A stretch of 46,351 nucleotides of DNA, counting the filler, from Catajapyx aquilonaris (Eukaryota), in NCBI GenBank assembly GCA_000934665.2. It is 2 parts of 2 records of this genome, joined end to end, with 100 filler letters (N's around TTAATTAATTAA, not from the genome) between each part and the next. Parts side by side here need not be neighbours in the genome. Positions count along the whole stretch, not along the records: positions 23,229 to 46,351 come from KZ539413.1; 1 more part is not named here. One strand, given 5' to 3'. The notes under the pieces were generated by a model that did not search any database, was not told where the DNA came from, and worked only from the letters and a program-made list of their open reading frames with translations. This document shows positions 25,052-45,084 of the stretch, piece by piece; within the stretch, counting starts at the first letter, position 1; the number at the start of each line of letters is the position of its first letter. Both the position numbers and the translations under genes were made by a program.

Positions 25052-25315
25052 ATGTCCCAGGCAGTGTGGATTAAGACGGAAGAGGCGGAGGAAGGGGAAG
25101 AGGAAGATGGAACAATCACAGCGGAGGAGACCTGGCAGTTGCCTGTGAAGGAGGAGGCCTCGTCTTGCTTTGGTGGTATGCTCACGGATGACACGCTTCG
25201 TGATGTCAAACAGGAGCCAGTCAAGGAGGAGGAGGAGGAGATGGAGGTGGGCATGTCTGGGGAGGTTGAAGATGAAGATGACCCTTTGGCAGGAGGTTCT
25301 GCAAAGATTAGTGGG
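25052..25315 (+). CDS. C2H2 zinc-finger gene A, coding exon 1 (acidic N-terminal module)
   Basis: Acceptor ttcgcag| just upstream, ATG in accATG context, MSQAVWIKTEE...EDEDDPLAGGSAKISG, donor |gtaggt at 25316, phase 0. Homologous to the first exons of B-E. Confidence 0.85.
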
Positions 25316-25565
25316 GTAGGTAATCCACTGAAATTGCAGTAGGGATTTTGCACTGACACCAAATTATCAATGCAAATCAAACACCAAGGCTAGATGATAC
25401 TGTAATATCCGCACTCCAGCTGCTGCCTTGACTGAACCAGTTGGTGATGTGCAGTCAATGGTTCATCTTGAAACACCCTTATTATGTTTGACTAATGAGC
25501 CAAATTTTAGACTTTTTCTCATTTAAAAAGTTTTATGTAATGGCTCAGTCTGTCCGTGGTCAGGT

Positions 25566-25921
25566 CAGGGAGCATATGCTACATAAGAGGCGCAAACTTC
25601 TGTCGGCGTATTTGATGTCCGCGTCTCTCTGTTTGGGGCTGTTGCCAAGGCTGGCGGCCATTTTGAAGTGTGGGCAACGCCAACGAGGTATAAATAGGGT
25701 GCAGGCAAAAATAGGGTCCGACATCTTTGATGGTTTTGGCGGCCATGGCAACTACATGGCAAGAACACACGCGAATCAAAGATGGCGGATCCTATTTTTG
25801 CCTGTACCCTATTTATACATCATTGCCCACACTACAAAATGGCCACCAGCCTTGGCAACGCCCCAAACAGCGAGACGCGGAAATCGAATGTTTGCGCCTC
25901 TTATGTAGTATATGCTCCCTG
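25566..25921. mobile_element. Foldback MITE with long inverted arms (possibly P-element-like)
   Basis: Termini cagggagcatatgctacataagaggcgcaaac ... gtttgcgcctcttatgtagtatatgctccctg. Arms pair over about 150 bp. Flanking direct repeat gtcaggt (7 bp, 8 bp if ggtcaggt). Confidence 0.85.
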
Positions 25922-26611
25922 GTCAGGTTATCAAGGCCCAAACTGCCAGAGAAAGCGACAAACTGTTTTTGGATTGGGATTTAGCATTACCAATATAGGT
26001 AGTCTAGACAGAAACTTCCCATATATTGGAAGAACGTTGAAAATATGTGGCCAGAGGGCCGAGGGACCGGAAAATATGAGAAGATCCGATGGAAGATTTA
26101 TGTGGAGAAATGTTTCTTTGGAATGTTAGTTTTGTATTGGCTGCCCTCCAGGTCGGATGTTTGTCCCGTTGGCCGGAATATAGTTCCTGGCAGTGTTAGA
26201 CCTGACCCCCTCGTGTGTTCATTTAATAGTTGTGGTGGCTAGCGCATCTGGCTCAAGGAACATCACGGTAACAATAAATGACCCCAGGATTTAGGGATAT
26301 TTCATAATATTAATGTTAAAATGTGCGGTGATTTCTGACCTTGATGCAACATACATACATACACTTCCCATCACCCTCCCACACATTCATTAATTTGTGG
26401 CATTAGTACCATAAAGGGTAGCCAGCAATGCAACAGAGGTCTCTATTTCTTTCTTCCCAACATTTCATGTGGTTATACTGACAATGAGATCTCTGTGCAC
26501 TCTGTGAACAAATTTTGTCCTTTTTACCTGATGAAATCAGGTGGAAAGGATCACACTAGCCACTCTGTACATTCAAAATTGATGAACTATAATAATTCTT
26601 TTTTTTTTCAG

Positions 26612-28108
26612 GTTGTGCAAGTGATAAATGAAGGGATAGTAGAAGATGATGATATTCAAGAGGAAAGTAACAAGGATGTATATCGTGAAAGTTCATTTGA
26701 GTGCAGAAAATGCCAGAAATTATTTGGTAACCTGGATGATTTGAATACTCACATGATGACTCATAGTGAAAAAAATTTCTGCCATGTATGCCAGAAAAAA
26801 TTTAGTTGCATAGGTAATTTGAATGTTCATATGCGAATTCACACAGGAGCGAAACCACATTCTTGTCAGGTATGTCAGAAGAAATTTAATGATTCAAGTC
26901 ATTTGAAAGCTCACATGCGAGTTCACACAGGAGAAAGGCCATTCATTTGTAATGTATGTCAAAAAGGTTTTTGTGTTGCAAGCGCATTGAAAACTCACAT
27001 GCAAATTCATTCAGAAGACATGCTATTTAGTTGTGAGGTGTGTCAGAAAACCTTTAAGAACCCAAGTAATTTGAAAAGTCATATGCGACTTCATACGAGA
27101 GACAAACCATTTGCTTGTGAGGTGTGTCAGAGAAAATTTAGTTTTCAGTGTGAATTGAAAAGGCATATGCAAGTTCATACAGGGGACAAACCATTTATTT
27201 GTGAGGTGTGCCAGAAGAGATTTCGTGATTCAAGTGATTTGGCAAAGCACGTGCGAATTCATACAGGAGAAAAACCCTTTACTTGTGAGGTGTGCCAGGA
27301 AACGTTTCGTGCTGCAAGTAGTTTGAAAGCTCACATTGGAATTCATGCAGGAGAAAATCCATTTGCTTGTGAGGTTTGCCATAAAATATTTACTCAGCTT
27401 AGTGATTTGAAAAGGCACATGCAAAGGCATACCGGGGAAAAACCTTTTCCATGTGAGGTGTGCCAGAAAAAATTTAGTCAGCCATGTGATTTGAAAAAGC
27501 ATATGCGAATTCATACAGGAGAAAAACCATTCACTTGTGAGGTGTGCCAGGAAAAGTTTCGTTACTCGAATATGTTGAAAATTCACATGCGTATTCATAC
27601 AGGAGAAAGCCCATTTACTTGTGAAGTGTGCCAGAAAACATTTGGTCACGCAAGCGATTTAGAAAAGCACTTGCAAAGGCATACAGGAGAAAAACCATTT
27701 ACATGTGAGGTCTGCCAGAAAAAATTTAGTCAGCCATGTGATTTGAAAAAGCACATGCGAATTCATACAGGAGAAAAACCATTTACTTGTGAGGTCTGTG
27801 AGAAAAAATTCCGTGAATCAAATAAGTTGAAAATTCACATGCGTATTCATACAGGAGACAAACCACTTAATTGTGAGGTGTGCCAGACCAAATTTAGACA
27901 TCAAAGTAATTTGATTACTCACATGCGAATTCATACGGGAGAGAAACCATTCATTTGTGAGGTGTGCCAGAAAGGGTTTCGTGATTCATCTCAGCTGAAA
28001 ATTCACACGCTAATTCATACAGGAGACAAACCATTCACTTGTGAGGTGTGCCAGAAACAGTTTCGCGTATCAGCTAAGTTGAAAACCCATATGCGAATTC
28101 ATACATGA
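26612..28108 (+). CDS. C2H2 zinc-finger gene A, coding exon 2 (17 tandem Kruppel-type fingers)
   Basis: Polypyrimidine tract and acceptor ttttcag| at 26611, in frame with exon 1. Seventeen CxxC-x12-HxxxH units, mostly with TGEKPF-type linkers; TGA stop. Confidence 0.95.
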   Translation, partial: VVQVINEGIVEDDDIQEESNKDVYRESSFECRKCQKLFGNLDDLNTHMMTHSEKNFCHVCQKKFSCIGNLNVHMRIHTGAKPHSCQVCQKKFNDSSHLKAHMRVHTGERPFICNVCQKGFCVASALKTHMQIHSEDMLFSCEVCQKTFKNPSNLKSHMRLHTRDKPFACEVCQRKFSFQCELKRHMQVHTGDKPFICEVCQKRFRDSSDLAKHVRIHTGEKPFTCEVCQETFRAASSLKAHIGIHAGENPFACEVCHKIFTQLSDLKRHMQRHTGEKPFPCEVCQKKFSQPCDLKKHMRIHTGEKPFTCEVCQEKFRYSNMLKIHMRIHTGESPFTCEVCQKTFGHASDLEKHLQRHTGEKPFTCEVCQKKFSQPCDLKKHMRIHTGEKPFTCEVCEKKFRESNKLKIHMRIHTGDKPLNCEVCQTKFRHQSNLITHMRIHTGEKPFICEVCQKGFRDSSQLKIHTLIHTGDKPFTCEVCQKQFRVSAKLKTHMRIHT

Positions 28109-28804
28109 GAGTAACCAATCCAAGTCTTGCCATACGAGTACATGGAATATTAAAGTTCGTATGAGGCACTCTAAAGAGAGACCATTTACTGATTTTGGCA
28201 GAAGTGAAGCAATATGAAAATGACATACGACTGCACAGAAGTGAACAAACAATCGATTCAATCAATCCATCAAGGGCCCAAGTGCGAAAAACCAAACTTT
28301 CCAGGAATCAAAATCAACTGTCTAAAACTCTTCCTGTGCGGGTCGGAACAGAACTAAAATTATCTGTGCTGTAGCGGATTGGAAACTCAATTGATCTATA
28401 CGTGCCAAAATTAAAATGCAGCTCATTATTGGTTTCAATTGAGTGAAGTGGTCACAATTGGCCTCTTGACAGATTGCACGATTCAATTATTATTGGTATT
28501 GTTTATATGTAAGATCACATCATTTCAAATCGGCCTTACACAATTCAATGTCAATAATGGTTATGGTGATAATCTATGAGCATACATCATTAATAATGCC
28601 GTTTGTGTGTACAACTTTCCATGTATTTAAAAAAACTAAAATTAAAGGACATGCTTGGACTTACTCCCACATTTTTGTGATATGTATGTTCGCAATCTGC
28701 ATATCATACCAATTATTATGGTACTAGCGCACCCGTAGCCAAAATTTGAGTGACGCGGCAACATGAGGGATGGAGTTGCAGGAAATGACGTAAGTAGCTG
28801 TTAG

Positions 28805-28950
28805 CATATAGCAGCGTCACCAAGTAGCGGCGACTATTGAAGTGGAAAATAGCAATTAAAGACATCCTTCTCTCTCAGGTGGCGATGGGAATGCACCCCT
28901 CAAAAAGAAAAAAAGAAAAAAATTAATGAGCGAAATCAAGATGGCCGATT
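28805..28950 (+). promoter_or_regulatory. Conserved promoter cassette of ZNF gene B
   Basis: caagtagcggcgac...ggaatgcacc...A-tract...caagatggccg, as in the other paralogs. Confidence 0.6.
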
Positions 28951-29142
28951 CCGTTGGTTCTCTTTAGAAGTGTTCGAACTAATTTCTACCCGTCTACTTC
29001 GCCGGATTTTGTCTCCTTGCCGACACTTACAGGCACGCTGCCTCTTCCCCAGGGTGGACTGGAGTCCCGGCTGTGGTGGGTAGCCGGAATAGGAATAACG
29101 GGAGGAACTATTGAGAAGCCTGCAGTTTTGATTTGCAGGGCC

Positions 29143-29553
29143 ATGTCTTTGATCCTGAGGATAAAGAAGGAGGAAGAGGCGGAGGAGGAAGGAGGTGGTG
29201 GGATCACAACAGAGGAGACCTCTTCTGCCTTTGATGAAGGCTCTACGCTTATAAAGAAGGAAGAAGATGAGGACATAACGGTGGAGGAGACCTGGCAGGT
29301 TCCCTTGAAGGAGGAGACACCTTCTTGCTTTGATGGTGGCTCTACTCTCATAGAAGACACTCTCCTCGAGATCAAGAAGGAGGAAGCGGAGGAGGAGGAG
29401 ATGGTGGCAACCACATCTAAGGAGGACAAAGAGGAAGGTGACCTGTTGGGAGTTGTTCCAGCAGAGGAGGAGGAGGAGATGGTGGTGGCCGCGTCTGGGG
29501 AGGTTGAAGATGAAGATGACCCTTTGGCTGTTGGTTGTGGAAGGATTAGTGAG
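29143..29553 (+). CDS. C2H2 zinc-finger gene B, coding exon 1 (acidic N-terminal module)
   Basis: Acceptor tttgcag| at 29138, ATG 29143, MSLILRIKKEE...EDEDDPLAVGCGRISE, donor |gtacgt at 29554, phase 0. Confidence 0.88.
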
Positions 29554-29796
29554 GTACGTACACTGCTGAAATTTCATTATAATGTTACACTAAAGCCTCA
29601 CAAAAATTTCAGTGCAAAGAAAGCACCCAGGCCAGATGATATTGTACAGTATTTTGGAAATATCCACACTCTTGTTGTATAGACTCAACCACTTGGTGAC
29701 GTGCAGTAAATGGTTCCTGTTGATGCAGCCTTATTATGTTTTGCTATTTCTTCAATAAGCCAAATTTATGTAAGAGAGCAACTACAGTATTATACT

Positions 29797-29798
<2 letters not shown>

Positions 29799-29870
<72 letters not shown>
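29799..29870. repeat. (TTA)n microsatellite
   Basis: Directly visible; source of the poly-Leu in the spurious ORF 29710-30033. Confidence 0.95.
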
Positions 29871-29871
29871 G

Positions 29872-30006
29872 GGTATGAGGATTAATGTAGATAAGACCAA
29901 GGCATTGATATTTGAGAGAGGACAGCAGGTTTCTCCTTGTATGTTGCAGGCACAAGGAAAACTGGTGGAGCAGGTGAACCAGTTTGTATACCTGGGTAGT
30001 GTCCTT
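29872..30006 (+). mobile_element. Non-LTR retrotransposon (RTE-like) reverse-transcriptase fragment
   Basis: Translates GMRINVDKTKALIF...LVEQVNQFVYLGSVL, matching the GLxINxxKTK...VxxFxYLGS end of LINE RT domains. Confidence 0.8.
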
Positions 30007-30211
30007 GAGAGTACTGTATGGAACGACTCGTAAAAATTACTGCTGCGAACTACTCGGAGCAGTAGGTAGGATTTTAATTTGAAAAGAAAAAAATTGGGGA
30101 AAAAATTAAACCCATCCTAACAGACTTGGTCCAATCGAAAAGGGAAAAGTCTATCGTTTATCCGCACCTAGCGACGCGGTGGGATTGGGAAGGCATGGTG
30201 GGCTCCAAACA

Positions 30212-30364
30212 TGTTGGCTACCAGTCGCAAACAATCGGTTGCCGGCAGAGCACAACAAAGGGTGTCGTCTTCTTAGCCCTGCCATGCGAACGGATGAGAC
30301 GAGTGCTGGGACCACTGGCAGCAGTATCAAGGCACCTGATTGTTTGCGACATAACGTTGCCAAC
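30212..30364. repeat. Imperfect inverted repeat (probable MITE remnant)
   Basis: gttggctaccagtcgcaaacaatcggttgcc pairs with ggcacctgattgtttgcgacataacgttgccaac. Confidence 0.55.
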
Positions 30365-30512
30365 CGTCGGGTGCCCCCCCNNNNNNNNNNNNNNCCCCCC
30401 CGCCCAACCCCGCCCACATAATAGGCCACAGCCCCTTCCTTCTTTCCCTATCCTTGGAGTTTGAAGAGGCAAAGCTGGGCCAATCTCCCTAATATCAATT
30501 ATAAAGTTCTTG

Positions 30513-30557
30513 CTAACTTAGCAGTACCATTGCACTACACTGGTACTGCTAAGTTAG
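30513..30557. repeat. Perfect 17-bp hairpin
   Basis: ctaacttagcagtacca - 11-nt loop - tggtactgctaagttag. Confidence 0.8.
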
Positions 30558-31197: not shown

Positions 31198-31860
31198 AAA
31201 CCTTTGCCTTATTGTTTTCAATTATAATAATGGTCCATAGGTCCAGTTTTAAGCATATCAAGTATGCAGAGAGTATACAGTCATGTAGATGAAGTGCATA
31301 TTACTAATTATTTATTTATTTATTTATTTCATACCCCATTATCCGGCCTGGGGCCGTTATTGTGGGGATACATATTACTATCTCTATAAATAAGGAAGTT
31401 TGTCAATTTGTTTGTTTGTTTGTCCCTTATAGAAATCCGGGGGAAGGCCCCTACACCGCCTTAAATTAGCATATCGGGAGTTACATTTTTCAAGGAATTT
31501 AATGCCGCATGTTTCAGCTTCCGAAAATGAACCCAACACCCATAACACGCATATTCCCAATTAGCCAATTGCCAATGACCTATTTAACAATATTCATAGA
31601 TTTCCATGGTAATGCCCTCATTACATTGTAGGCCTACCACCATAACTTACCCGGGCAACGCCGGGTAACCTGCTAAACCTTTGCCTTATTGTTTTCAATT
31701 ATTATAATAATGGTCCATAGGTCCAGTTTTAAGCATATCAAGTATGCAGAGAGTATACAGTCATGTAGATGAAGTACATATTACTAATTATTTATTTATT
31801 TATTTATTTCATACCCCATTATCCGGCCTGGGGCCGTTATTGTGGGGATACATATTACTA
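31198..31860. repeat. About 185-bp direct duplication (31198-31380 and 31675-31860) flanking a Helitron-like copy
   Basis: Both copies read aaacctttgccttattg...ggggatacatattacta, differing by one 3-bp indel and one substitution. Confidence 0.92.
31378..31675 (+). mobile_element. Non-autonomous Helitron-like element, copy 1
   Basis: 5' (a)TCTCTATAAA, internal (GTTT)n, subterminal hairpin cccgggcaacgccggg, 3' ...ctgCTA lacking the terminal G. Resembles insect Lep1-type Helitrons. Confidence 0.7.
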
Positions 31861-31871
31861 ATTATGTTATA

Positions 31872-32170
31872 CTAGCAGGTTACCCGGCGTTGCCCGGGTA
31901 AGTTATGGTGGTAGGCCTACGATGTAATGAGGGCATTACCATGGAAATCTATGAATATTGTTAAATAGGTAATTGGCAATTGGTTAATTGGGAATATGCG
32001 TGTTATGGGTGTTAGGTACATTTTCGGAAGCTGAAACATGCGGCATTAAATTCCTTGAAAAATGTAACCCCCGATATGCTAATTTAAGGTGGTGTAGGGG
32101 CCTTCCCCCGGATTTCTATAAGGGACAAACAAACAAACAAATTGACAAACTTCCTTATTTATAGAGATAG
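31872..32170 (-). mobile_element. Non-autonomous Helitron-like element, copy 2 (inverted)
   Basis: Reverse complement of copy 1 with a few substitutions. On the minus strand it ends in the hairpin, then CTAG followed by T. Confidence 0.75.
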
Positions 32171-32325: not shown

Positions 32326-33282
32326 GTTGTGCAAGTGAGAACTGAAGATGGAGGAGAAGAGAATGGGATCCAGGAGGAAAGGGACAGGGGATTATGTGGT
32401 GGAAAAAGTTCATTCGAGTGTAGAATGTGTCAAAAATTATTTGGTACCCTGCATGAATTGAAAATTCACCTCTTCACTCACAGTGAAAAATATTGCTGCC
32501 AAATTTGCCAGAAAACATTTACTCAGCCTAGTGATTTGAAAATTCACATGTATATTCATACAGGAGAAAAACCATTTACTTGTGAGGTGTGCCAGAAAAA
32601 ATTCAGTGAATCAAATCAGTTGAAAAGGCACACGCTTATTCATACGGGAGAAAAACCATTTACTTGTGAGGTGTGCCAGAAAAAATTCAGTGAATCAACT
32701 AAGTTGAACAGGCACATGCTTATTCATACGGGAAAAAAACCATTTACTTGTGAGGTGTGCCAGAAACAATTTGGTCAGGCATGTGTTTTGAAAAGGCACA
32801 TGCTCATTCATACAGGAGACAAACCATTCACTTGTGAGGTGTGCCAGGAAAAGTTTCGTGCTGCAAGTAATTTGAAATTTCACATTCTTATTCATAGAGG
32901 AGAAAAACCATTTGCTTGTGAAATGTGCCAGAAAACATTTACTCAGCCTAGTCATTTGAAAAAGCACATGCGAATTCATACCGCAGAAAAACCATTTACT
33001 TGTGATGTGTGCCAGAAAAAATTCCGTGAATCAAATAAGTTGAAAAGGCACATGCTTATTCATACGGGAGAAAAACCATTTACTTGCGAGGTGTGCCAGA
33101 AACAATTTCGTCAGGCAGGTGATATGAAAAGGCACATGCTTGTTCATACAGGAGACAAACCATTCACTTGTGAGGTGTGCCAGGAAAAATTTCGTCATGA
33201 AAGTACTCTGAATTATCACAAGTGGATGCACACATGTGAGAAAAAATTTATTGTTGTGCTGCCCCCTGTAAATAATTTGTAA
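32326..33282 (+). CDS. C2H2 zinc-finger gene B, coding exon 2 (10 fingers)
   Basis: Acceptor ttttcag| at 32325, starts VVQV like the paralogs; ten CxxC-x12-HxxxH units. Confidence 0.95.
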   Translation, partial: VVQVRTEDGGEENGIQEERDRGLCGGKSSFECRMCQKLFGTLHELKIHLFTHSEKYCCQICQKTFTQPSDLKIHMYIHTGEKPFTCEVCQKKFSESNQLKRHTLIHTGEKPFTCEVCQKKFSESTKLNRHMLIHTGKKPFTCEVCQKQFGQACVLKRHMLIHTGDKPFTCEVCQEKFRAASNLKFHILIHRGEKPFACEMCQKTFTQPSHLKKHMRIHTAEKPFTCDVCQKKFRESNKLKRHMLIHTGEKPFTCEVCQKQFRQAGDMKRHMLVHTGDKPFTCEVCQEKFRHESTLNYHKWMHTCEKKFIVVLPPVNNL

Positions 33283-33312
33283 TGCCAGGAACGGGTACTG
33301 GTATCTACTGGT

Positions 33313-33480
33313 AGTGAAATTTGCCAAAAGGAATTCAGTGCAGCATATTGGTTGAAATGTCGCATAATGCACACGGATCAAACACCATACAGTTGCCTTG
33401 TTTGCAAGAAAATGGTTTTGTGAAGCAAGTACTGTGAAAGTGCTTATGTGACGGTGCACTGATGAAGAGACACCATTTAT
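33313..33480 (+). pseudogene. Decayed zinc-finger coding remnants in the 3' UTR of gene B
   Basis: Reads SEICQKEFSAAYWLKCRIMHTDQTPYSCLVCKK, then after a frameshift FCEASTVKVLM*RCTDEETPFI. Homologous copies at about 39941-40107 and 42226-42393. Confidence 0.7.
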
Positions 33481-33629
33481 CGTTTCACAGACATGTGAAA
33501 AGTCATACGATGGCTGAAACTGTATAAAAGTCAAAGAGGTATGTGTCATTCCACTGATAATGTATTATATTTCAGGTATAAAATAATTTTACTGCGATTA
33601 AAAAATTACGAAAAAATTCGTGTGGAGAT

Positions 33630-33790
33630 GGGAATAGCGCTGTTGGAGGGAGTAGCGGTTCTGCACCAGTAGCGGCGATTGTTGAATGGGAATTGATAGC
33701 GCATAAGGCCGTCCTTCCACTTTAGTGCGGTGACAGGAACGCACCCTTTAATTCGCATAAAAAAGAATAGAAGGAAATCAAAGATGGCCG
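33630..33790 (+). promoter_or_regulatory. Conserved promoter cassette of ZNF gene C
   Basis: caccagtagcggcgat...atagcgcataag...ggaacgcacc...aagatggccg. Confidence 0.6.
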
Positions 33791-34006
33791 CCTGACCTCC
33801 CTCGCCTTGTTCTCTTCAGAGAGAGAGTGTCCCCGTCGAATTGATTTCATCCCGGAGACCAAGCAGCTCGAGCAGGTGAATAACCACCCGTACTTTTTCC
33901 GGCAAGCTTCTTGTGAACTGGACCACGCACTGTTTCTTTCTCCCTCCTCGTTGAACTTACCTCTTTTGCCTCCCCCCTGATGCTTCACACCTAAATGCGA
34001 GACATC

Positions 34007-34763: not shown

Positions 34764-34813
<50 letters not shown>
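34469..34813 (+). mobile_element. tRNA-derived SINE with (TTA)n tail
   Basis: A-box-like tggtgtagtagt, B-box ggttcgaatccc, 3' stem-loop then (TTA)n. 13-bp TSD tattattgtaatc at 34456-34468 and 34814-34826. Confidence 0.85.
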
Positions 34814-34820
<7 letters not shown>

Positions 34821-35187
34821 GTAATCAGTTGTCTCCCCCCCAGTGGCCTGCATGCCCCCAGGGTTGAATATAATTAATTAATTAATAATTTTGAAACTAC
34901 AGTGAGAGGCTTACAGATTCCATACAGGGGATCATTTTTTGAATCATCATCTTTATTAATAGCTCGCACTGTGATGGAATTTGAGATTAGGAAGGAAACA
35001 CGAGCGCACACAGATACTTCATGCCCCTCCACCACTGTGCCATTCATTATGATGGGCTTGTCTAATTTTCTTTTCTTCGTGTTTTCCTTTGCCCACCCTC
35101 TCAGAGGCATGTTCCTCCTCTTCATCTGGCATGAGGGAGATACTCCTTGAAATGATTACCTGACCTGAAATTTTGTGTTGCAGGATC

Positions 35188-35466
35188 ATGTCTTTGATCC
35201 TGAGGATAAAGAAGGAAGAGGTGGAGGAAGGAGGAGGAGATGAGGACATCACGACAGAGGAGACCTGGCAGATACCCTTGAAGCAGGAGACCCCTTCTTG
35301 CTTTGATGGTGGCTCTACCCTCATGGAAGACACTCTCCTCGAGATGAAGAAGGAGGAAGCAGAGGAGAAGGGGGAGGAGGAGGAAGCAGAGATGGAGCTG
35401 ACCACATCCGATGTGGTCGATGATGAAGATGACCCTTTGGCAGTTGGTTCTGGAAGGATTAGTGAG
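35188..35466 (+). CDS. C2H2 zinc-finger gene C, coding exon 1 (acidic N-terminal module)
   Basis: Acceptor gttgcag| at 35183, ATG 35188, MSLILRIKKEE...DDEDDPLAVGSGRISE, donor |gtatgt at 35467, phase 0. Confidence 0.88.
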
Positions 35467-35620: not shown

Positions 35621-37931
35621 GGGCGATTCCAGGACAAATGAGGGGTGTGGTGGGAAAAGGTGATAACCCTCATTTTTGTCATTTTGACATACCCACCTAG
35701 CAACTATGTAAAAGACATGACAAACAGTTTGGTGTACTCCAAGTTCACTTATCATCCACTAGACAGCCACACGGACTTGATCATTCCCTATGATTTGTTA
35801 AGAGAATGCAAACTTTAATTCGTTCTCCTGAAAAATTATACTTTTGTTATCACATTTTCCCATCACACCCCTCAAATCATACAAAGGACTTCACATTTTT
35901 TTATCTCAAAGAAATTAAGTGCAGAAAGGGGTATAACATTTTCAAGGCTGAAGGAGGTACTATAGTAGTTGACCATAATATTGTTTTTCAACAATGATTT
36001 GTCTCTGTAAGGCCTTCATTTTGATTTCAAAAATTTGAACATTCAGTCATGGCAATCACACAATCCTGTTCAGTTCATTCAGACATCAAAAGTATCGGTG
36101 TGCCCTGCATTACACGAGATATAAGGTCATTTGTCCACGTGTGTTGGGCATTTTACATGTATTTGGCCATTTAATTGTGCGTGACCTAATTACCTTACAT
36201 TTTTACAAAATTTTGATTTGTGTTTTATTCCTTATGGAGAATGGCAAGTTTCAGCACTCTCACAGGTGTGGGAGTGGGATATTGGTGGGACATACAAACA
36301 TATTGTCGGCATTAAGCAGAGAGGGCGGATAGATCATTTTATAAATTTCACAGGAGGGCTAATAATAGGTTTTAAATCACCCTCACAAATCGCAGCATCA
36401 CTGTATAAGCTCTAAATTTTTTGGATTGCATTGGATCAATGCATTGGAGCAATGCATTGATTTTCTTTGGCAGTCAAAATTAGATAATATTTTTATTGAA
36501 TTATTTTAGTGTAAAAAATTTAATGGATATTCGATCTTTCTCCTTAATTGTTTTTAATAGTCTGGATGCTAAGAGTTTTAACTTTGCATTTTGGGATAAA
36601 AACCTGAAATTCTCCACAATTAGTATTTGGACAGTTATTAACATGTCTGGAAGTGAGGCCATGATGGATAACCCTGCTGTTAGTCGCTCACAGGGTTGCC
36701 ATATTTAACAGGCGCAACATGCGTTTCTATTTGAATAAGGAGCTTCGATTCGGTGATAAAGACATGAATCTCGGTGCACTAGTTCTTTGGACACTTCTGA
36801 CCATATCTGGACATGGAGGCACAATGACCTCGCTGGAGGTCACTATCACGGGGTTGCCAAACCCAACAGACTGTGCAACATGCATTTATATTTGAATAGT
36901 GAGCTTGAATTTGGTAATAAAGACATGGAACTAGTTCTGAACATATCTGGACGTGGGGCGACGATCACAGACCTTGCTTTAACAAACTGTGAAACAAGCG
37001 TTTATATTTGAATAGGGAGCTACTGCGGGGTCGGTCACCGTGGCCCCACGTCCAGATATGTTCATACCTTTGTAAAGAACTAGTGTACTGAGTTTCACGT
37101 CATTTTCACCAAATGCAAGCTCACTATTCAAAAGAAATGCATGTTTCACGCTCTGTTAGATATGGCAACCCTGTAATAGTGACCTCCATCGGGGTCGGCA
37201 ATCGTGGCCCCACGTCTGACATGTTCAGAAGTGTGCAAAGACCTATTGTGGAGAGTTTCATGTTTTTACCACGGAATGCAAGGGCCTTATCAAGGGGGTA
37301 ACAACATCGTGGAGCCGGTGTATAGGATCCCGCTGGAACTGGCCTGGAACCGGTGGAACCACATGGTTCCAGGATACGGTGTACACTTTTTGGGGGAGTT
37401 CTTACGCCCTTGGACCCTACACATGTAAAGGTGTGCTGCACCTGTTCAATTGGCAACGCTGTGAAAGTGACCTCCAGCTGGGTCACCCAGCGTGGTCGCA
37501 CATCCAAATATGCTCAGAAGTATCCAAAGAGCGAGAGTACCGAGTTTCAAAATTTAATCACAAAATTCAACGTTTATTTTTCCCTTAGCACCTGGGCTAT
37601 GCTCCCTTTCTCCTTACACTGTCTTTGGATATTCACCGGAACAACTTTCTCGTTCAGGCACATTGTTCCACCTACACATCTGCTGTTTCACCAAACCATG
37701 TGGTGGGTGATGTCAATGTAAGATATGCATTTTCGCAAAAAAAATAAATTTAAAAAGGCCTATGATTCGCCATTTCTGCTTAATGCCGACGATATATAAT
37801 TAATTAATTATACATACCAACAAGTTTTGACATTTATACTATGAGAGATTATCCTACCAAATTTCATTGAGGTCAGAAAATAGGTGGTGAACCTTGAATT
37901 TTATTTTGCATGATCTGTCCTGGAATCACCC
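35621..37931. mobile_element. 2.3-kb non-autonomous TIR DNA transposon (Sola-like termini, tentative)
   Basis: 19-bp TIR gggcgattccaggacaaat / atctgtcctggaatcaccc (2 mismatches), flanks tcat/gcat. Removing it restores similarity to the gene A intron (ggttcatcttgaaacaccc). Confidence 0.7.
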
Positions 37932-38819: not shown

Positions 38820-38900
38820 GGGACGCTTAGTGGCCAAGTCAGTAAAAACTTGGCGTGCTGAGCGAAATATCCTGGGTTAGAGCCCCGCCCGGGAGATCCC
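38820..38900 (+). mobile_element. Degenerate tRNA-like SINE head
   Basis: A-box-like tagtggccaagtcag and B-box-like ggttagagccc at tRNA-like spacing; extent unclear. Confidence 0.4.
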
Positions 38901-39289: not shown

Positions 39290-39865
39290 GTTGTGCAAGT
39301 GAGAACTGAACATGGCGTAGAAGAGAATTGGATACAGGAGGAAAGGGCCAGGGGAATATGTGATGGAAGAAATCCATTTGAGTGCAGAATATGCCAGATA
39401 ATATTTGGTACCCAGGAAGATTTGAATATTCACGTCATTACTCATAGTGAGAAAAATTGCTGCTACGTTTGCGGGAAAAAGTTCAGTCATTCTGCTGGCT
39501 TGAAACTTCACATGCAAATTCACACAGGAGAAAAGCAATCCACTTGTGAGGTGTGCCAGAAAACGTTTTGTAAACCATCTGTTTTGAAAAGGCACATGTT
39601 TATTCACACAGGAGAAAAACCCTTTAATTGTGAGGTGTGCAAGAAAAAATTCAGTGTATCACATAAGTTGAAAACTCACATGCTCGGTCATACAGGAGAC
39701 ACACCATTCACTTGTGATGTGTGCCAGAAAAAATTCAGTGAATCAAATAAGTTGAAAAGGCACATGCTAATTCATACGGGAGAAAAACCGTTTTCATGTC
39801 AGGTGTGCCAGAAACAATTTCGTCATAAAGGTACTCTGAATTTTCACAAGTGCATTCATACATGA
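39290..39865 (+). CDS. C2H2 zinc-finger gene C, coding exon 2 (6 fingers)
   Basis: Acceptor gttccag| at 39289, starts VVQV; six C2H2 units; TGA after the last HT. Confidence 0.93.
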   Translation, partial: VVQVRTEHGVEENWIQEERARGICDGRNPFECRICQIIFGTQEDLNIHVITHSEKNCCYVCGKKFSHSAGLKLHMQIHTGEKQSTCEVCQKTFCKPSVLKRHMFIHTGEKPFNCEVCKKKFSVSHKLKTHMLGHTGDTPFTCDVCQKKFSESNKLKRHMLIHTGEKPFSCQVCQKQFRHKGTLNFHKCIHT

Positions 39866-40239
39866 AAGAAAAAATTAATTTTTGTGGTGCCCCCTTTAAA
39901 TAATTTGTAATGCAAGGAATGGGTACTGGTATCTACTGGTAGTGAAATGCCAAAAGGAATTCAGTGCAGCATATTGGTTGAAATGTCGCATACTGCACAG
40001 GGAAGAAACACCATGCAGTTGCCTTGTTTGCAAGAAAATGGTTTTGTGATGCAATTACTGTGAAAGTGCTTATGTGACGGTGCACTGATGAAGAGACACC
40101 ATTTATCATTTCACAGACATGTGAAAAGTCATACGATGGCTGAAACTGTATAAAAGTCGAGTCAGTATGTGTTATTCCACTGATAATGTGTTCTATTTCA
40201 GGTGTAAAATAATTTTACTGTGATTAAAAAATTACGAAA

Positions 40240-40521
40240 GGGTCATTCCATGTCAGTTCATCCAGCCATGTCACCCACCATCTCAGATTCTTTCTAGTGT
40301 TGCCTAGCGCACCTCGCGCGGCAGTTGTCACTGTGGGCGCGCTACAGTTCTCCGGTTTGCCGCGGGATGGTGTTGAATCGCCCTTCTTAACAGACGATGT
40401 GTGTAGATATATGATTTTCCGTGTAACCGCTGGGCGTAGAAAAAAAACCGATCGCACATTCGGAATCAGGATTTTTTGCCCGATTTTTGGGGGCCAACTT
40501 GTATTTTGAGTGGAGTGTCCC
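40240..40521. mobile_element. Possible small TIR element between genes C and D
   Basis: gggtcattcca ... tggagtgtccc imperfect inverted termini; segment absent from the paralogous D-E spacer; no clear TSD. Confidence 0.4.
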
Positions 40522-40579
40522 TTTAATGTAAAAACAAACAAAAAATTACTTGATAAACACTCCAACATGTTGCATTGAA

Positions 40580-40750
40580 AGAGCAGCCGAACTGCTATCC
40601 GCGAATAGCAGCATCACCAGTAGCGGCGACTGGTGAGGTGGAAATAGCGCTTAATGCCATCCTTCTCTGTCAAGTGGTGATGGGAATGCACCCATACAAA
40701 AAAAGAAAAAAAAAAAAACAAGAATCCGATGAGAATAAAGATGGCCGACC
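40580..40750 (+). promoter_or_regulatory. Conserved promoter cassette of ZNF gene D
   Basis: caccagtagcggcgac...atagcgc...ggaatgcacc...A-tract...aagatggccg; nearly identical to that of gene E. Confidence 0.6.
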
Positions 40751-40957
40751 GCCTCTTCCGTTGTCCTCTTCAATGAGGCCCTTCAAGTGACACTGTGTGA
40801 GGTCATTTCCACCCGTCCGAGTGACTGGATTTGTCTACTCGCCGACCAGAAGGACTGGTCCCCTCGCTAGGGTGACGCCGGCTGTGGTTGGGTAGGCGGA
40901 ATAGGAAACGGGGGAACCCTTTGGGAACATGAACTGATGTTTTGTATTTGCAGGACC

Positions 40958-41398
40958 ATGTCACAGGCAGTGAGGGTGAAGGAGGAAGAGGCTGAGGAAG
41001 GAGGAGGAGAGGCGGATGGAAGAGTCACAGAGCAGTTTCTCTTGAAGAAGGAAACTTCGGCTTGCTTTGATCGTGACTCTACACCCATAAAGAAGGAAGG
41101 AGAGGAGGACATCACAGTGGAGGAGACCTGGCAGATTCCCTTGAAGAAGGAGACCCCTTTTTGCTTTGATGGTGGCTCTACTCTCATAGAAGACACTCTC
41201 CTCGAGATCAAGAAGGAGGAGGAAGCGGAGGAGGAAGGGATGGTGGCAACCACGTCTAAGAATCACAAAGAGGAAGACGACCCATTGGGAATTGTTCCAG
41301 CAGAGGAGGCGGAGGAGGAGGAGATGGTGGTGGCCATGTCTGAGGAGATTGCAGATGAAGACGACCCTTTGGAAGTTGGATCAGGAAGGATTAGCGGG
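40958..41398 (+). CDS. C2H2 zinc-finger gene D, coding exon 1 (acidic N-terminal module)
   Basis: Acceptor tttgcag| at 40953, ATG 40958, MSQAVRVKEEE...DEDDPLEVGSGRISG, donor |gtatgt at 41399, phase 0. Confidence 0.88.
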
Positions 41399-41580
41399 GT
41401 ATGTAACCAGCTGAAATTGCAGTATAATTATTTGATGTTTCTCCCAATGGGTTAAGTAAAATAAAAATAGAAATAAGTAAATTATAATTAGGGATCCCTT
41501 CCAAATGACAAAACAGGTGGAATGAATCAATCTGTCAACACTGCATAACAGTAATTGATAAACTGTAATTCACATTCCAG

Positions 41581-42195
41581 GTTGTGCAAGTGAGAACTGC
41601 ACATGGCGTAGAAGAGACCCGGATACAGGTGGAAAGGAACAGGGGAATATGTGGTGGAAGAAATCCATTTAAGTGCACAATATGCGAGATAATATTTGGT
41701 ACCCAGGATGATTGGAATATTCATGTCATTGCTCATAGTGAGAAAAATTGCTGCCATGTTTGCGGGAAAATGTTCAGTCATTCCTTTGACTTGAAAATTC
41801 ATATGCAAATTCACGAAAAACCATTCACTTGTGAGGTGTGCCAGAAAAAGTTTCTTAATTCAAGTGAGTTGAAAATTCACATGCGAAATCATACAGGAGA
41901 AAAACCCTTTACTTGTGAGGTGTGCCAGAAAACGTTTTGTACACGATATATTTTGAAAAGGCATATGCGTATTCATACAGGAGAGAGGCCACATAGCTGT
42001 GAGGTGTGCCAGAAAAAATTCCGTTTTTCAAGAGATTTGAAAATTCACATGCTAATTCATACGGGAGAAAAACCATTTACTTGTCAGGTGTGCCAGAAAC
42101 AATTTCGTCATATAGGTACTCTGAATTCTCACAAGAGCATTCATACATTAGAGAAAAAATGTATTTTTGTGGTGCCCCCTTTTAATAATATGTAA
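41581..42195 (+). CDS. C2H2 zinc-finger gene D, coding exon 2 (6 fingers)
   Basis: Acceptor attccag| at 41580 (182-bp intron), starts VVQV; six C2H2 units. Confidence 0.93.
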   Translation, partial: VVQVRTAHGVEETRIQVERNRGICGGRNPFKCTICEIIFGTQDDWNIHVIAHSEKNCCHVCGKMFSHSFDLKIHMQIHEKPFTCEVCQKKFLNSSELKIHMRNHTGEKPFTCEVCQKTFCTRYILKRHMRIHTGERPHSCEVCQKKFRFSRDLKIHMLIHTGEKPFTCQVCQKQFRHIGTLNSHKSIHTLEKKCIFVVPPFNNM

Positions 42196-42829
42196 TGCAA
42201 GGAACGGGTACTGGTATCTGCTGGTAGTGAAATCAGCCAAAGGGAATTCATTGCAACATATTGGTTGAAATGTCGCATAATGCACAAGGAAGAAACACCA
42301 TACAGTTGCCTTGTTTGCAAGAAAATTGTTTTGTGATGCAAGTACTGTGAAAGTGCTTATGTGACGGCGCACTGATGAAGAGACGCCACTTATCGTTTAA
42401 CAGACATGTGAAAAGTCATACGATGGCTGAAACTGTATCAAAGTCGAAGAGGTATGTGTCATTCCACTGATAATGTATTCTATTTCGGGTATAAAATAAT
42501 TTTCCTGTTATTAAAAATTACGATTCAACTTATTTTCGGAACGACCCTTGTATAATCAGGCAAGTAATATGCCAAGATACATGCGAAGACAGAGAAGAGC
42601 AGAGCAATGTTGCCTAGGTAACATCACATCACTTGAAATTAGCATGAGGCTGTTCAATGCCTATCATTATCTTGATGATCTATGACCGTCTGGTTGCAAA
42701 TGTCATTGTTGTGTACAACTTTCCACGCATGATAAAAACTTATTTTCAGATGTTTTGCTGCTTTAAAAAAAAATACCATGCTTGACTTACTCTCACATTC
42801 ATGATGTGCTCACTACTGCATAATTATCA

Positions 42830-43084
42830 GGGCGACACGGTGGCGGAGTGGTTAGCACCGCAGCCTTCCACCTCTAAGGTCCCGAGTTAGATCCCCGGGT
42901 CGGACGGAGGATGCTTAAGTGGATAGAGTTTCGATGTGTTCTCTCCGTGTTCGCGTGGGTTTTCTCGGGGTTCTCCTGTTTCCTCCCACTATCAAAATCC
43001 ATCACAGGCAAATGATTAAAGTCAGTTTTTCAAAAGATGATCCCCTAAGAGGCCCGAGGGGCCTGTCACGGGGTATCCATTATT
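42830..43084 (+). mobile_element. tRNA-derived SINE with V-SINE-like core domain, full length
   Basis: Head gggcgacacggtggcggagtggttagcac (A-box), core gagtttcgatgtgttctctccgtgttcgcgtgggttttctcggggttctcctgtttcctcccac. Perfect 16-bp TSD tactgcataattatca at 42814-42829 and 43085-43100. Confidence 0.9.
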
Positions 43085-43859
43085 TACTGCATAATTATCA
43101 TCAATATCATGCCAATTAATAGGTACATTACACCACTAGAGAATCTTGCCTTGAATAGAGTAATTTCACTTATTCCTCCCCGCTCTGATCAATTTGGAGT
43201 GCATATCCTTCAGTGCCAAAGGAATTGAGGCGCTCGGAGGAAGAACTGCGCATCTCAACCTGAGTTCATTTTGAGGTAAATGGCTTTTTGTGTTGCAGGA
43301 TAATGGGATTTTCCATTGCGGACCAATTTTACAAGTGGAATATGTGAGCTCTGGCATATCCCAATTAATTTGGGACTTCAGCACATGAAAGGTAGATGGC
43401 AGGAGAGTACAAAAGCAATACAATTTCCAAAGCGGAGGCCGCTCGGTTGGGATATGCCGTTTTTCCTCTGAGCGCCTCCTAATAATTGCCAATTATTATC
43501 AAGAAGCAATCTTGAAGTTTCAAGTTATAGGAAAGTATAATTTCTTTATGTAATCATTTTGAGAGTGGGAGGATGTGGAAGAACACACTTATAACACAGG
43601 ACATGGGAACACCCACAGAGCGAGTTCAAAATAAACCTGCACTTCCTGTTACATACTTTTTTTAAAATGGCAAAAGTTCATTGTAATTATCATTTTAATG
43701 CATTTTTTTTCTTGGGGTCCGAGAATACCCCACGGAACGGTTCAGAACAAATAGGTACCTTGCATTTCACTAGCACATTTCTTTAATGTAAAATAATAAT
43801 TTAAAATAATAATAACAATAATAATAACTTGAGAAACACTCCAACATGTTGCATTGAAA

Positions 43860-44022
43860 GAGCAGCCGAACTGCTACCCGCGAATAGCAGCATCACCAGT
43901 AGCGGCGACTGGTGAGGTGGGAATAGCGCTTAATGTCATCCTCCTCTGTCAGGTGGTGATGGGAATGCACCCACACAAAAAAAGTAGAAAAAAAAGAATC
44001 TGATGAGAACAAAGATGGCCGA
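43860..44022 (+). promoter_or_regulatory. Conserved promoter cassette of ZNF gene E
   Basis: Near-identical to 40580-40750. Confidence 0.6.
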
Positions 44023-44336
44023 CCGCCTCTTCCGTTGTTGTCCTCTTCAAGGCCCTTCAAGTGACGCTGTGTGAGGTCATTTCCACCCGTCCGAGTGACT
44101 GGATTTGTCTGCTCGCCGACCAGAGGGACGGGTCACCTCTCACTAGGGTGCCGGCTGTGGTTGGGTAGGCGGAATAGGAAACGGGAGAACCCTTCGGGAA
44201 CACGAACAGGTAGAGACGAACCCGGCCGCGTATGAGAAGTCCCCCTGTCCCATCTGGGGATCGAAAGCAGGCCTCTGAGGCCGTGGCACTAACCATTACG
44301 CATCTGTGCCACCCATAAAGTATTGACATGGAATGA

Positions 44337-44570
44337 GGTCATCTTGGGGCTGCCCTGATGTGACCTTCAGCATAATCCAAACATTTTGTGAATTCATATT
44401 TAAGCTCCAGGTCGGCACATATATGATGTTTGTGAGTTTGAACTATGCCAATTGCTGCCGTAATGGCATTATGTGATTGCAATTTTCATTTTTATGAGCT
44501 GTAAACATAAATATTGAGTCATGAAATTTTTGGAATTGTGGCCAAGTTCTGCTGTGTGCCCAAGATGACC
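44337..44570. mobile_element. Possible MITE in the 5' intron of gene E
   Basis: 12-bp inverted termini ggtcatcttggg / cccaagatgacc. Confidence 0.45.
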
Positions 44571-44715
44571 CAACCTACGGCGGTGTGCTTATCTCTTACA
44601 TTCCTTGGCTTCATGCTTGCCTTTGTCGACTTCTCAGGGAAATGTTATTTTGTGACTGGTGGAATTGGCATCATGACATGATTACCTGACCTGCTGTTTT
44701 GTATCTGCAGGACCA

Positions 44716-45084
44716 ATGTCACAGGCAGTGAGGGTGAAGGAGGAAGAGGCTGAGGAAGGAGGAGGAGAGGCGGATGGAAGAGTCACAGAGCAGTTTCTCT
44801 TGAAGAAGGAAACTTCGGCTTGCTTTGATCGTGACTCTACACCCATAAAGAAGGAAGGAGAAGATGAGGACATCACAGTGGATGAGGAGACCTGGCAGAT
44901 TCCCTTGAAGGAGGAGACCCCTTCTTGCTTTGATGGTTGCTCTACTCTCATAGAAGACACTCTCCTCGAGATCAAGAAGGAGGAGGAAGCGGAGGAGGAG
45001 GAGGAAGAGATGGTGGTGGCCATATCTGAGGAGGTTGCAGATGAAGAAGACCCTTTGGCTGTTGGTTCTGGAAGGATTAGCAGG
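44716..45084 (+). CDS. C2H2 zinc-finger gene E, coding exon 1 (acidic module; finger exon presumably beyond the window)
   Basis: Acceptor tctgcag| at 44710, ATG 44716, MSQAVRVKEEE...DEEDPLAVGSGRISR, donor |gtatgt at 45085, phase 0. Confidence 0.85.

Follow-up and report, generated by a model that had tools for sequence, protein, structure and literature searches.

Dozens of animal zinc-finger (ZNF) families are uncharacterised, as stated by Wells et al. (PMC10547256). Two of the closest described systems combine a dedicated N-terminal effector with an array of fingers. KRAB-ZNF genes of tetrapods have an effector exon apart from the finger exon, lie in head-to-tail clusters and show diversification of contact residues. 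The FiNZ-ZNF genes of cyprinid fish, as described by Wells et al., carry a Glu-rich N-terminal sequence without similarity to known domains, encoded by a separate exon that precedes a single finger exon; they form a large, tandem, lineage-specific family with adaptive evolution, and the mechanism by which they silence is also given as unknown. SUMO-dependent repression has been characterised in human factors, where psi-K-x-E was reported as needed in 149 of the 166 repression domains holding it, a 10-aa IKEE tile of MGA was enough to repress and mutation of SIMs made 81 of 113 tiles weaker (DelRosso et al., bioRxiv 10.1101/2022.08.26.505496). For psi-K-x-E, NDSM and SIM we follow the definitions in PMC5574528.

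Here we describe five ZNF genes (A-E) of Catajapyx aquilonaris in a stretch of 46,351 nucleotides (hereafter, the window), which share with KRAB-ZNF and FiNZ-ZNF genes the features of sequence, layout and evolution listed above for each and look like a lineage-specific counterpart of both families. Their first coding exon (exon 1) is rich in psi-K-x-E motifs.

Organisation of the gene cluster

All five genes lie head-to-tail on the + strand, each with a phase-0 exon 1 of 88-147 aa. Genes A-D have one C2H2 finger exon apiece, with 17, 10, 6 and 6 fingers, and predicted proteins of 586, 455, 284 and 351 aa; gene E is incomplete, its finger exon not being found in the remaining 1267 bases of the window. 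The search of the window by tblastn and a finger regular expression returned no pieces beyond five first coding exons and four finger exons. Features are as follows:

24720..24900, + strand: gene A promoter-like conserved block, with GGAATGCACCC, an A-run, AAAATGGCCGAC at 24818 and ATTTCTACCCGT at 24882 (alignments, motif scans)
25052..25315, + strand: exon 1 of gene A (88 aa), an acidic module carrying 4 psi-K-x-E
26612..28108, + strand: gene A finger exon, VVQV start, 17 C2H2 fingers, stop codon included
28840..28993, + strand: gene B promoter-like conserved block, with AAGATGGCCGAT at 28938 and ATTTCTACCCGT at 28982 (alignments, motif scans)
29143..29553, + strand: exon 1 of gene B (137 aa), with its repeat unit duplicated
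32326..33282, + strand: gene B finger exon, 10 fingers
33683..33800, + strand: gene C promoter-like block, with AAGATGGCCGCC at 33781, 1.4 kb 5' of the ATG exon
35188..35466, + strand: exon 1 of gene C (93 aa), the minimal form with a single repeat
39290..39865, + strand: gene C finger exon, 6 fingers
40640..40816, + strand: gene D promoter-like block, with AAGATGGCCGAC at 40738 and ATTTCCACCCGT at 40805 (alignments, motif scans)
40958..41398, + strand: exon 1 of gene D (147 aa), with both repeat unit and DDPL tail duplicated
41581..42195, + strand: gene D finger exon, 6 fingers
43914..44090, + strand: gene E promoter-like block, with AAGATGGCCGAC at 44012 and ATTTCCACCCGT at 44079, about 0.7 kb 5' of the ATG exon
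44716..45084, + strand: exon 1 of gene E (123 aa); finger exon outside the window

An open frame, canonical splice sites and the same phase were found in all nine exons. The length of every exon 1 is a multiple of 3, and all five end at G/GTAxGT donors (the slash marks the splice boundary); the intron before the finger exon of gene D is only 182 bp. Each gene has one conserved promoter-like block 0.2-1.4 kb upstream, and the ATG sits 5-6 nt behind a conserved TGCAG/G acceptor-like site. The initial annotation of this DNA had described five head-to-tail genes with a separate N-terminal exon and, in A-D, a single phase-0 finger exon, in a KRAB-ZNF-like layout; all of this was recovered (five copies of the N-terminal exon on the + strand, and one finger exon in each of the four genes), with the effector exon set apart from a single finger exon and the genes in tandem. 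Given the acceptor-like site before the ATG and the upstream promoter-like block, its ‘first exon’ is probably the first coding exon only, rather than the exon with which the transcript begins.

Zinc fingers and selection

The finger exons of A-D encode 39 canonical C2H2 fingers, arranged as tandem C-x2-C-x12-H-x3-H units joined by TGEKP-type linkers, as in C2H2 poly-zinc-finger proteins, and match zf-C2H2 and zf-H2C2_2 with E values from 1e-25 to 1e-117. In gene D, the linker joining fingers 2 and 3 is shorter by 2 aa. The family most likely consists of tandemly duplicated, lineage-restricted poly-C2H2 zinc-finger transcription factors.

Across the fingers, positional entropy peaks at helix positions -1, +2, +3 and +6 (3.31, 2.92, 3.18 and 2.83 bits). 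At the contact residues dN/dS amounts to 8.6 for C-D, 2.65 for B-C and 3.2 for B-D, as estimated from 24 codons per pair with the aligned fingers assumed to be orthologous, against 0.35-0.47 for the finger framework. Contact-residue ratios above 1, together with the top variability at these helix positions, indicate divergence among the paralogues in the DNA that their fingers read. Diversification of contact residues in finger arrays is as seen in ZNF families that track transposable elements (TEs). Exon 1 is kept by purifying selection, with dN/dS of 0.26-0.43 in nine of the ten pairs and 0.78 in the youngest pair, D-E, at a dS of 0.05.

The first coding exon and VVQV

Exon 1 is built of one or two units of about 35 aa, after which comes an acidic tail with DEDDPL..G...IS at its end. 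The unit comprises a psi-K-x-E, an acidic spacer and ITxEETWQxP-psi-K-x-E-T-x-S-CFDGGST. Columns invariant in the five copies include E55, E56, T57, W58, Q59, P61, K63, E65, C69 and F70, and further D133, E134, D136, P137, L138, G141, I145 and S146. Asp and Glu make up 31-34% of the exon, and its net charge is -22 to -35 per copy.

Exons A-E contain 4, 4, 3, 5 and 5 psi-K-x-E motifs, against shuffle means of 0.24-0.58, and the observed count was reached in at most 0.28% of 5000 shuffles; because the five exons are paralogues, these counts are not independent. Motif density is 2.9-4.5 per 100 aa, compared with a median of 0.65 and a maximum of 3.61 in 99 other ZNF N-termini; psi-K-x-E is a short motif, and at least three sites before the fingers were also found in 27 of the 120 unrelated ZNFs retrieved. 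Three of the lysines are invariant (K8, K63 and K85 in gene D numbering), and two to three sites per exon have at least two acidic residues among the next six positions, making them NDSM-like.

All five exon 1 peptides were scanned against Pfam with hmmscan, and no family scored above the cut-off, KRAB, ZAD, BTB and SCAN included. KRAB (PF01352) was absent from them even at E <= 10; for ZAD (PF07776), which has four zinc-binding cysteines, there was no Pfam match and a single conserved cysteine, C69; for BTB and SCAN there was neither a Pfam nor a PDB match, and searches of PDB and Atlas with exon 1 gave no match at all. A profile of the five copies likewise had no real match, with no animal protein at E <= 0.001, among 1.84 billion (1.84e9) representative proteins, a collection that does contain animal ZNFs, including those of Danio and other fish.

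Both structure models were built on alignments of just 4-5 sequences; exon 1 is predicted to be disordered (pLDDT 55, pTM 0.13) apart from one helix, the amphipathic DTLLEIKKEEE at residues 78-88, and residues 1-29 of exon 2 have a pLDDT below 50. This N-terminal stretch of exon 2 holds VVQV: the finger exons open at CAG/GTTGTGCAAGTG, and the same 12 nt occur in all four genes, followed by acidic residues 3-10 positions after VVQV. The V/I-V/I-x-V/I core and its acidic neighbours fit the SIM pattern, so that VVQV is a putative SIM, and its predicted disorder is as expected of a linear one. Its conservation could, however, serve splicing rather than SUMO binding, because the identical 12 nt lie directly behind the acceptor.

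Most of what the initial annotation had claimed for these exons held: three to five psi-K-x-E per first exon, well above shuffles; acidic runs after several of them; four of the five lysines of gene A inside such motifs; the terminal D(D/E)DPL..GxxxIS; the lack of a KRAB, ZAD, BTB or SCAN signature; exon 2 opening with VVQV near acidic residues in all four finger exons; and the absence of a Pfam hit, which it had named as support. Its EETWQxP(L/V)KxE..SCF block is indeed conserved, but SCF is present in four of the five copies only, gene D having FCF.

Possible mode of action

With psi-K-x-E sites, acidic tails and predicted disorder, exon 1 has the sequence features of a SUMO-dependent repression domain. 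We tentatively favour, at somewhat less than even confidence, a reading in which the family is lineage-specific, its members diversify in DNA binding and their disordered effector would repress through SUMO; we infer the repression step from motifs only. The effector would be the disordered region formed by exon 1 together with roughly the first 29 residues of exon 2, where VVQV lies. Ubc9 would conjugate SUMO to the three invariant psi-K-x-E lysines, the SUMO moieties would recruit SIM-containing co-repressors or heterochromatin factors, with the hydrophobic core of VVQV perhaps assisting as a SUMO-interacting motif, and the DNA bound by the fingers would be silenced. The weakest step is that transposons may be its targets, by analogy with the KRAB and FiNZ families. 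The earlier reading of a SUMO/SIM repressor family with possible transposon surveillance is partly supported. Sumoylation can also merely damp activators (PMC5574528), an observation that counts against the repression reading. It is doubtful that the cluster represents an independent KRAB-like genome-surveillance system, in which a repeat-built, disordered poly-SUMO acceptor and SIM cassette would be the sole effector of a whole fast-evolving ZNF family and direct SUMO conjugation of the DNA-bound factor would trigger silencing without a TRIM-type adaptor.

A serious alternative is that the same acidity marks exon 1 as a transcriptional activation or bifunctional domain, in which acid-exposed hydrophobics (EETWQxPL, DTLLEI and EMVVA, amid acidic residues) would contact co-activators and psi-K-x-E would tune or limit the activity. 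Its Asp and Glu content exceeds that of all 99 other ZNF N-termini (maximum 25%), its strongly negative net charge and amphipathic sole helix suit such a role, and its best 40-aa tiles, with a charge of -13 to -16 and 8-11 W/F/Y/L/I/M/V residues, have the composition of acidic activation domains reported by DelRosso et al. We nevertheless consider an activation or bifunctional domain rather unlikely: aromatics are scarce (each exon has 7-13 W/F/Y/L residues, of which 1 is W, 1-3 are F and none is Y), the best-conserved polar positions are lysines, which an activation domain would not need, and the studied families of like layout, KRAB and FiNZ, are described as repressing. The longest invariant runs, EETWQ.P and D(E/D)DPL..G...IS, are not lysine motifs and have no SUMO-related reading; they could, with CFDGGST, recruit a dedicated cofactor, psi-K-x-E being secondary. 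There is precedent in KRAB, which recruits TRIM28, and possibly in FiNZ with TRIM33, for which co-immunoprecipitation results were reported to agree with TRIM33 binding by FiNZ and KRAB-like proteins (PMC11603059). Against docking of this kind, no fold is predicted for exon 1. No known co-repressor motif is apparent in it by eye, the forms compared being WRPW, eh1 and PxVxL. Nor does DDPLAV conform to PL[DN]Lx, the refined CtBP motif given by DelRosso et al., and we regard a dedicated cofactor as unlikely.

N-terminal dimerisation domains are described in many non-KRAB ZNF families (PMC7913770), and Drosophila ZAD-ZNFs are reported not to target TEs specifically (Wells et al., PMC10547256), as would suit a module that serves self-association or architecture, in the manner of ZAD, SCAN or BTB, in a family that organises chromatin rather than silencing transposons. 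The predicted disorder of exon 1 (pTM 0.13) and its net charge argue against homotypic association, and a ZAD-like zinc site is impossible because the exon holds one cysteine only; such a role is very unlikely. Decay of the duplicates, or an exon 1 that is not truly coding, seems most improbable of all: the incomplete gene E and the shortened linker of gene D would agree with it, but the intact frames and splice sites of the nine exons, the dN/dS of exon 1 (0.26-0.43) and finger framework, and the upstream blocks conserved at all five genes oppose it.

Comparison with known systems

The family provides a compact, motif-defined candidate effector that combines one VVQV core with three invariant lysines. 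Should it act as a SUMO-dependent repressor, it would be a very small, portable repressor module and would show that generic SUMO machinery is enough for a lineage to arrive at a KRAB-like system; should it prove to be an activator, it would run counter to the view of such clusters as repressors. The psi-K-x-E repression mechanism itself is not new, because such repression domains have been published for human factors by DelRosso et al.; only the exon 1 module is. Exon 1 resembles the SP3/MGA-type human SUMO-motif domains of that study in being a short disordered stretch with psi-K-x-E (the active element of the human domains, as IKEE for example; IKKE, VKEE, LKEE and IKTE in the window). The human domains, as described there, are isolated motifs in unrelated proteins, whereas here three to five sites lie in a conserved, repeated, family-wide module whose activity is predicted.

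Teleost XlCGF57.1-like and OZF-like ZNFs have acidic N-terminal regions rich in psi-K-x-E, with IKEEQEEL...LKQET..F repeats before their fingers that by eye resemble IKKEEDEDITVEETWQIPLKEET..CF. This likeness does not reach significance: 11.5 bits was the top score of the whole-exon profile, the best of 20 shuffles scored 10.5, and the repeat-unit profile scored 4.2 bits, below shuffled controls (up to 7.3).

Unlike KRAB-ZNFs, the cluster encodes no PF01352 match and an exon 1 that is predicted to be fully disordered; KRAB works via TRIM28, and exon 1 contains no recognisable motif for such an adaptor. With regard to FiNZ, the profile search gave no fish protein at E <= 0.001, though a 28-aa match could escape it. 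FiNZ, as described by Wells et al., is a cyprinid-specific sequence of 28 aa, whereas the module here has 88-147 aa and is built of repeats.

Organisation of the gene family

The stop-to-stop ORF list and the splice-site check agree on five zinc-finger (ZNF) genes, A to E, arranged head to tail on the + strand in the second half of the window. As the initial annotation had described, each possesses a separate N-terminal coding exon (exon 1, or the module), followed in A to D by one finger exon (exon 2). Exon 1 is in phase 0, its length being a multiple of three in every gene, and the donors read G^GTA(G/C/T)GT in all five genes (^, splice boundary).

Coding exons of genes A to E
25052-25315, +, gene A, first coding exon, 88 codons
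26612-28108, +, gene A, finger exon, 17 canonical C2H2 fingers
29143-29553, +, gene B, first coding exon, 137 codons
32326-33282, +, gene B, finger exon, 10 canonical C2H2 fingers
35188-35466, +, gene C, first coding exon, 93 codons
39290-39865, +, gene C, finger exon, 6 canonical C2H2 fingers
40958-41398, +, gene D, first coding exon, 147 codons
41581-42195, +, gene D, finger exon, 6 canonical C2H2 fingers
44716-45084, +, gene E, first coding exon, 123 codons

The introns between the two exons measure 1296 (A), 2772 (B), 3823 (C) and 182 bp (D). All four finger exons open after CAG with GTTGTGCAAGTG, identical at 12 of 12 nucleotides and encoding VVQV, the SIM-like start ascribed earlier to exon 2. 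Pfam matches in exon 2 of A to D were confined to C2H2-type finger families, and a regular-expression count gave 39 canonical fingers over the four genes. Neither tblastn with the five exon peptides nor a six-frame finger scan revealed exon-1 or finger pieces in the 46 kb beyond these five and four; for gene E, no finger exon was found in the 1267 bases between exon 1 and the end of the window. Between fingers 2 and 3, the gene D exon (41581-42195) has the linker HEKPFTC, a two-residue deletion relative to HTGEKPFTC, and gene C reads TGEKQST at the linker position.

Upstream blocks and a possible 5′ exon

All five genes carry a conserved, pyrimidine-rich and splice-acceptor-like TGCAG^G 5-6 nt before the ATG. 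Further upstream lies a second conserved block, also present in all five, which is composed of GATAGCGC..., GGAATGCACCC, an A-run and then AAGATGGCCGAC. This block sits ~0.2-0.3 kb from the ATG in A, B and D. In C (1.4 kb) and E (0.7 kb) it is further away, with unrelated sequence of these lengths inserted between the block and the ATG exon.

Conserved elements upstream of exon 1 (+ strand, A to E in order)
25041-25051, 29132-29142, 35177-35187, 40947-40957, 44704-44715, acceptor-like TGCAG^G(A/G)(C/T)C(A) directly 5′ of the ATG
24720-24900, 28840-28993, 33683-33800, 40640-40816, 43914-44090, upstream blocks
24818, 28938, 33781, 40738, 44012, upstream-block sites

AAGATGGCCGAC, which resembles a YY1/Pho-type site, has 10 occurrences at up to two mismatches (2.64 expected), and five of these fall inside the upstream blocks. 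For ATTTCYACCCGT, at up to one mismatch, there are five (0.62 expected), of which four precede genes A, B, D and E. The upstream block probably represents the core promoter or a 5′ non-coding exon of the family. Because of the acceptor-like TGCAG^G and the conserved block, what had been called the 'first exon' stands as a separate N-terminal coding exon, but is predicted not to be exon 1 of the transcript: it is probably the first coding exon only, preceded by a short non-coding one.

Duplication history and genomic surroundings

Self-BLAST identified D and E as the youngest duplicate pair (~90% nucleotide identity). The 3′ flanks of B, C and D (33283-33613, 39866-40239 and 42196-42523; ~350 bp) are ~85% identical, a conservation equal to that of the coding sequence, and may represent a shared 3′ UTR; gene A has no such flank.

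Several repeats are located around the genes. The gene B intron contains a 298-bp inverted repeat (arms 31378-31675 and 31873-32170, 97.7% identity by self-BLAST) ending ~150 bp upstream of the finger exon; a young insertion of the foldback or MITE-like type could account for it. An older inverted repeat of ~250 bp with 75% identity (36584-36829 and 37033-37281) occupies the gene C intron. In the gene A intron, the stretch 25492-26129 has ORFs on both strands with recurring peptide strings (e.g., ...KMA.SLGN...RKSNV...) and no Pfam match among these ORFs; the recurrence points to an element repeated in tandem or in inverted orientation. Perfect trinucleotide microsatellites lie between the genes: (ATT)24 at 29799-29870, (ATT)19 at 34764-34820 and (TAT)26 at 45835-45913.

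N runs are present at 15826-16006 and 30381-30394, in addition to the filler that joins the two records (23129-23228); with several assembly gaps, the sequence is a draft scaffold. Among 112 ORFs scanned outside the family, the only Pfam domain was the start of a Sulfotransfer_2 (carbohydrate sulfotransferase-type) domain encoded by an exon at 20714-21115 (+; E 9e-7), and bases 1-24000 yielded no other domain in scanned ORFs of at least 75 aa. The CpG observed/expected ratio of the window is 0.72, and its Rfam search returned no match.

An acidic module built from repeats and SUMO-type motifs

The five exon-1 peptides share 39 invariant alignment columns, including (gene D numbering) K8, E55-Q59 (EETWQ), P61, K63, E65, C69, F70 and K85, and in the tail D133, E134, D136, P137, L138, G141, I145 and S146. 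The EETWQ block, the CF pair and the terminal DPL..G...IS noticed in the initial annotation are thus all among the invariant positions. Genes B, D and E carry a duplicated central unit (local alignment score of the N-block against the EETWQ-block 56-58, reached by none of 2000 shuffles). The exon is thus made up of a ~35-aa unit, present once or twice and bracketed each time by psi-K-x-E sites (the SUMO-attachment consensus), and of an acidic tail with one or two (E/D)DDPL motifs. A duplication of the tail in gene D is weakly supported, as 11 of 2000 shuffles reach its score.

Counted as [VILMF]KxE, psi-K-x-E occurs 4, 4, 3, 5 and 5 times in A to E. Shuffled sequences average 0.24-0.58, and no more than 0.28% of 5000 shuffles attain the real count. 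As paralogues the exons are not independent, but three of the sites are unchanged even in pairs whose dS is 0.3-0.8. In each exon 2-3 sites have at least two acidic residues in the next six positions, which corresponds to the NDSM definition in PMC5574528. The three to five motifs per exon previously reported, several with acidic runs, agree with these counts.

Compared with other ZNF proteins, exon 1 is at the extreme for both psi-K-x-E density and acidity. It has 2.9-4.5 sites per 100 aa, whereas 99 other ZNF N-termini of at least 60 aa have a median of 0.65, reach 2.14 at the 90th percentile and peak at 3.61. Asp and Glu make up 31-34% of its residues but no more than 25% in any of those 99, and its net charge is -22 to -35. 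Motifs of this type are themselves common in acidic ZNF N-termini, since 27 of 120 retrieved ZNFs, including teleost, cockroach and beetle proteins, have at least three psi-K-x-E before the first finger.

AlphaFold2, run on a shallow five-sequence alignment, gave a mean pLDDT of 55.4 and a pTM of 0.13 for exon 1; pLDDT is 70 or higher at 2 of the 147 positions, and a single helix is predicted at residues 78-88 (DTLLEIKKEEE). Residues 1-29 of exon 2, VVQV included, are below 50 in a similarly shallow alignment, in which the two following fingers are recognised. Shallow alignments make this weak evidence for disorder, yet it agrees with the composition. The VVQV would form a hydrophobic core in an accessible, predictedly disordered stretch, with acidic residues after it.

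Search for relatives and known domains

By every sequence-based test run, exon 1 is no known domain, in line with the original reading. Three of the five peptides had no Pfam match at all at E ≤ 10. CWC25 appeared in the other two, where its 15 and 12.6 bits fall far short of the 31.4 bits required, and was taken as a composition effect. The PDB profile search had no match at E ≤ 1, and the ESM Atlas offered a best value of 0.84 to unnamed clusters with low recognition (~1030) and no usable match among named clusters.

A profile of the five exons, the check proposed at the outset, was searched against 1,835,955,588 representative proteins. The sole match, at E 5.8e-5, was judged spurious: it is a repeat protein of 4679 aa that is rich in Thr, Ser and Ala and lacks acidic stretches. 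The word-index search for longer proteins with exon 1 retained 0 of 3613 candidates; a query of the 80 residues that open exon 2 brought up two candidates, neither of them significant. The gene B finger exon served as positive control: of 7360 candidates, 4579 proteins passed E ≤ 1e-20, and their sources span fish (Danio included), amphibians, mammals, insects, crustaceans, cnidarians and molluscs. Its best ZNF matches are 48-52% identical, none above 52%, and come from fish, amphibians, insects and crustaceans alike. Given the success of this control, the collection covers animal proteomes but contains neither the family nor a close relative.

The repeat unit IKKEEDEDITVEETWQIPLKEET..CF looks, by eye, like the IKEEQEELCTSQEGEQLELKQETETF repeats of teleost ZNFs. 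Kinship with these IKEEQEEL...LKQET..F repeats, however attractive, was not significant in controls: the whole-exon profile scored at best 11.5 bits on them against 10.5 for the best of 20 shuffled sets and 5.9 for reversed sequences, and a profile of eight repeat units scored 4.2 bits on real and up to 7.3 on shuffled sequences. The strings EETWQ, DEDDPL and VVQVRTE were found in no paper, and keyword searches of the literature found no description of the module.

Selection on the module and on the fingers

Exon-1 dN/dS is 0.26-0.43 in nine pairs; D-E has 0.78, at a dS of only 0.05. Positional entropy of the fingers peaks at helix positions -1, +2, +3 and +6 (3.31, 2.92, 3.18 and 2.83 bits), with 2.61 at +1 and 1.22 at +5. 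At the four peak positions dN/dS is 8.6 for C-D, 2.65 for B-C and 3.2 for B-D, from few codons (24 per pair) and with finger orthology assumed, most safely for the collinear C-D; the remaining finger positions give 0.47, 0.41 and 0.35, respectively. This is a DNA-binding family diversifying in specificity.

How the module may act

We favour, tentatively and at somewhat under an even chance, the reading that the psi-K-x-E lysines of exon 1 would be SUMOylated and that their SUMOylation would lead to repression. It draws on human psi-K-x-E and SIM data of DelRosso et al. (bioRxiv 10.1101/2022.08.26.505496), in which 149 of the 166 repression domains with the motif needed it, a 10-aa IKEE tile was enough to repress and 81 of 113 tiles became weaker once their SIMs were mutated. 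In the same study, what defines an activation domain is the presence of aromatic or leucine residues amid acidic ones, and domains that both activate and repress are described; sumoylation can also merely damp activators (PMC5574528). An acidic activation or bifunctional domain is the main rival, and we consider it less likely. Binding of a dedicated cofactor via EETWQxP and DDPL..G...IS is unlikely, a dimerisation module very unlikely, and that the genes are pseudogenes seems barely credible.

For SUMO-dependent repression, the initial annotation cited the SUMO-SetDB1 link in Drosophila and proposed surveillance of transposable elements (TEs). Only analogy and the contact-residue signal suggest such a role for A to E.

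Comparison with known ZNF families

The closest described system is the FiNZ-ZNF family of cyprinids. As described by Wells et al. (PMC10547256), its members carry a 28-aa Glu-rich N-terminal sequence, encoded by a single exon that precedes the ZNF exon and without similarity to known domains; the family is confined to cyprinids and was shown to restrain young TEs. Co-immunoprecipitation results reported for it are consistent with TRIM33 binding (PMC11603059). Compared with FiNZ by description only, the module of A to E is longer, built from repeats and without detectable similarity to anything. KRAB- and FiNZ-type families display the same pattern as A to E, a conserved effector combined with diversifying DNA recognition. 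Wells et al. (PMC10547256) also report dozens of uncharacterised ZNF families across animals, and A to E looks like one of these, with an unusually explicit motif grammar.
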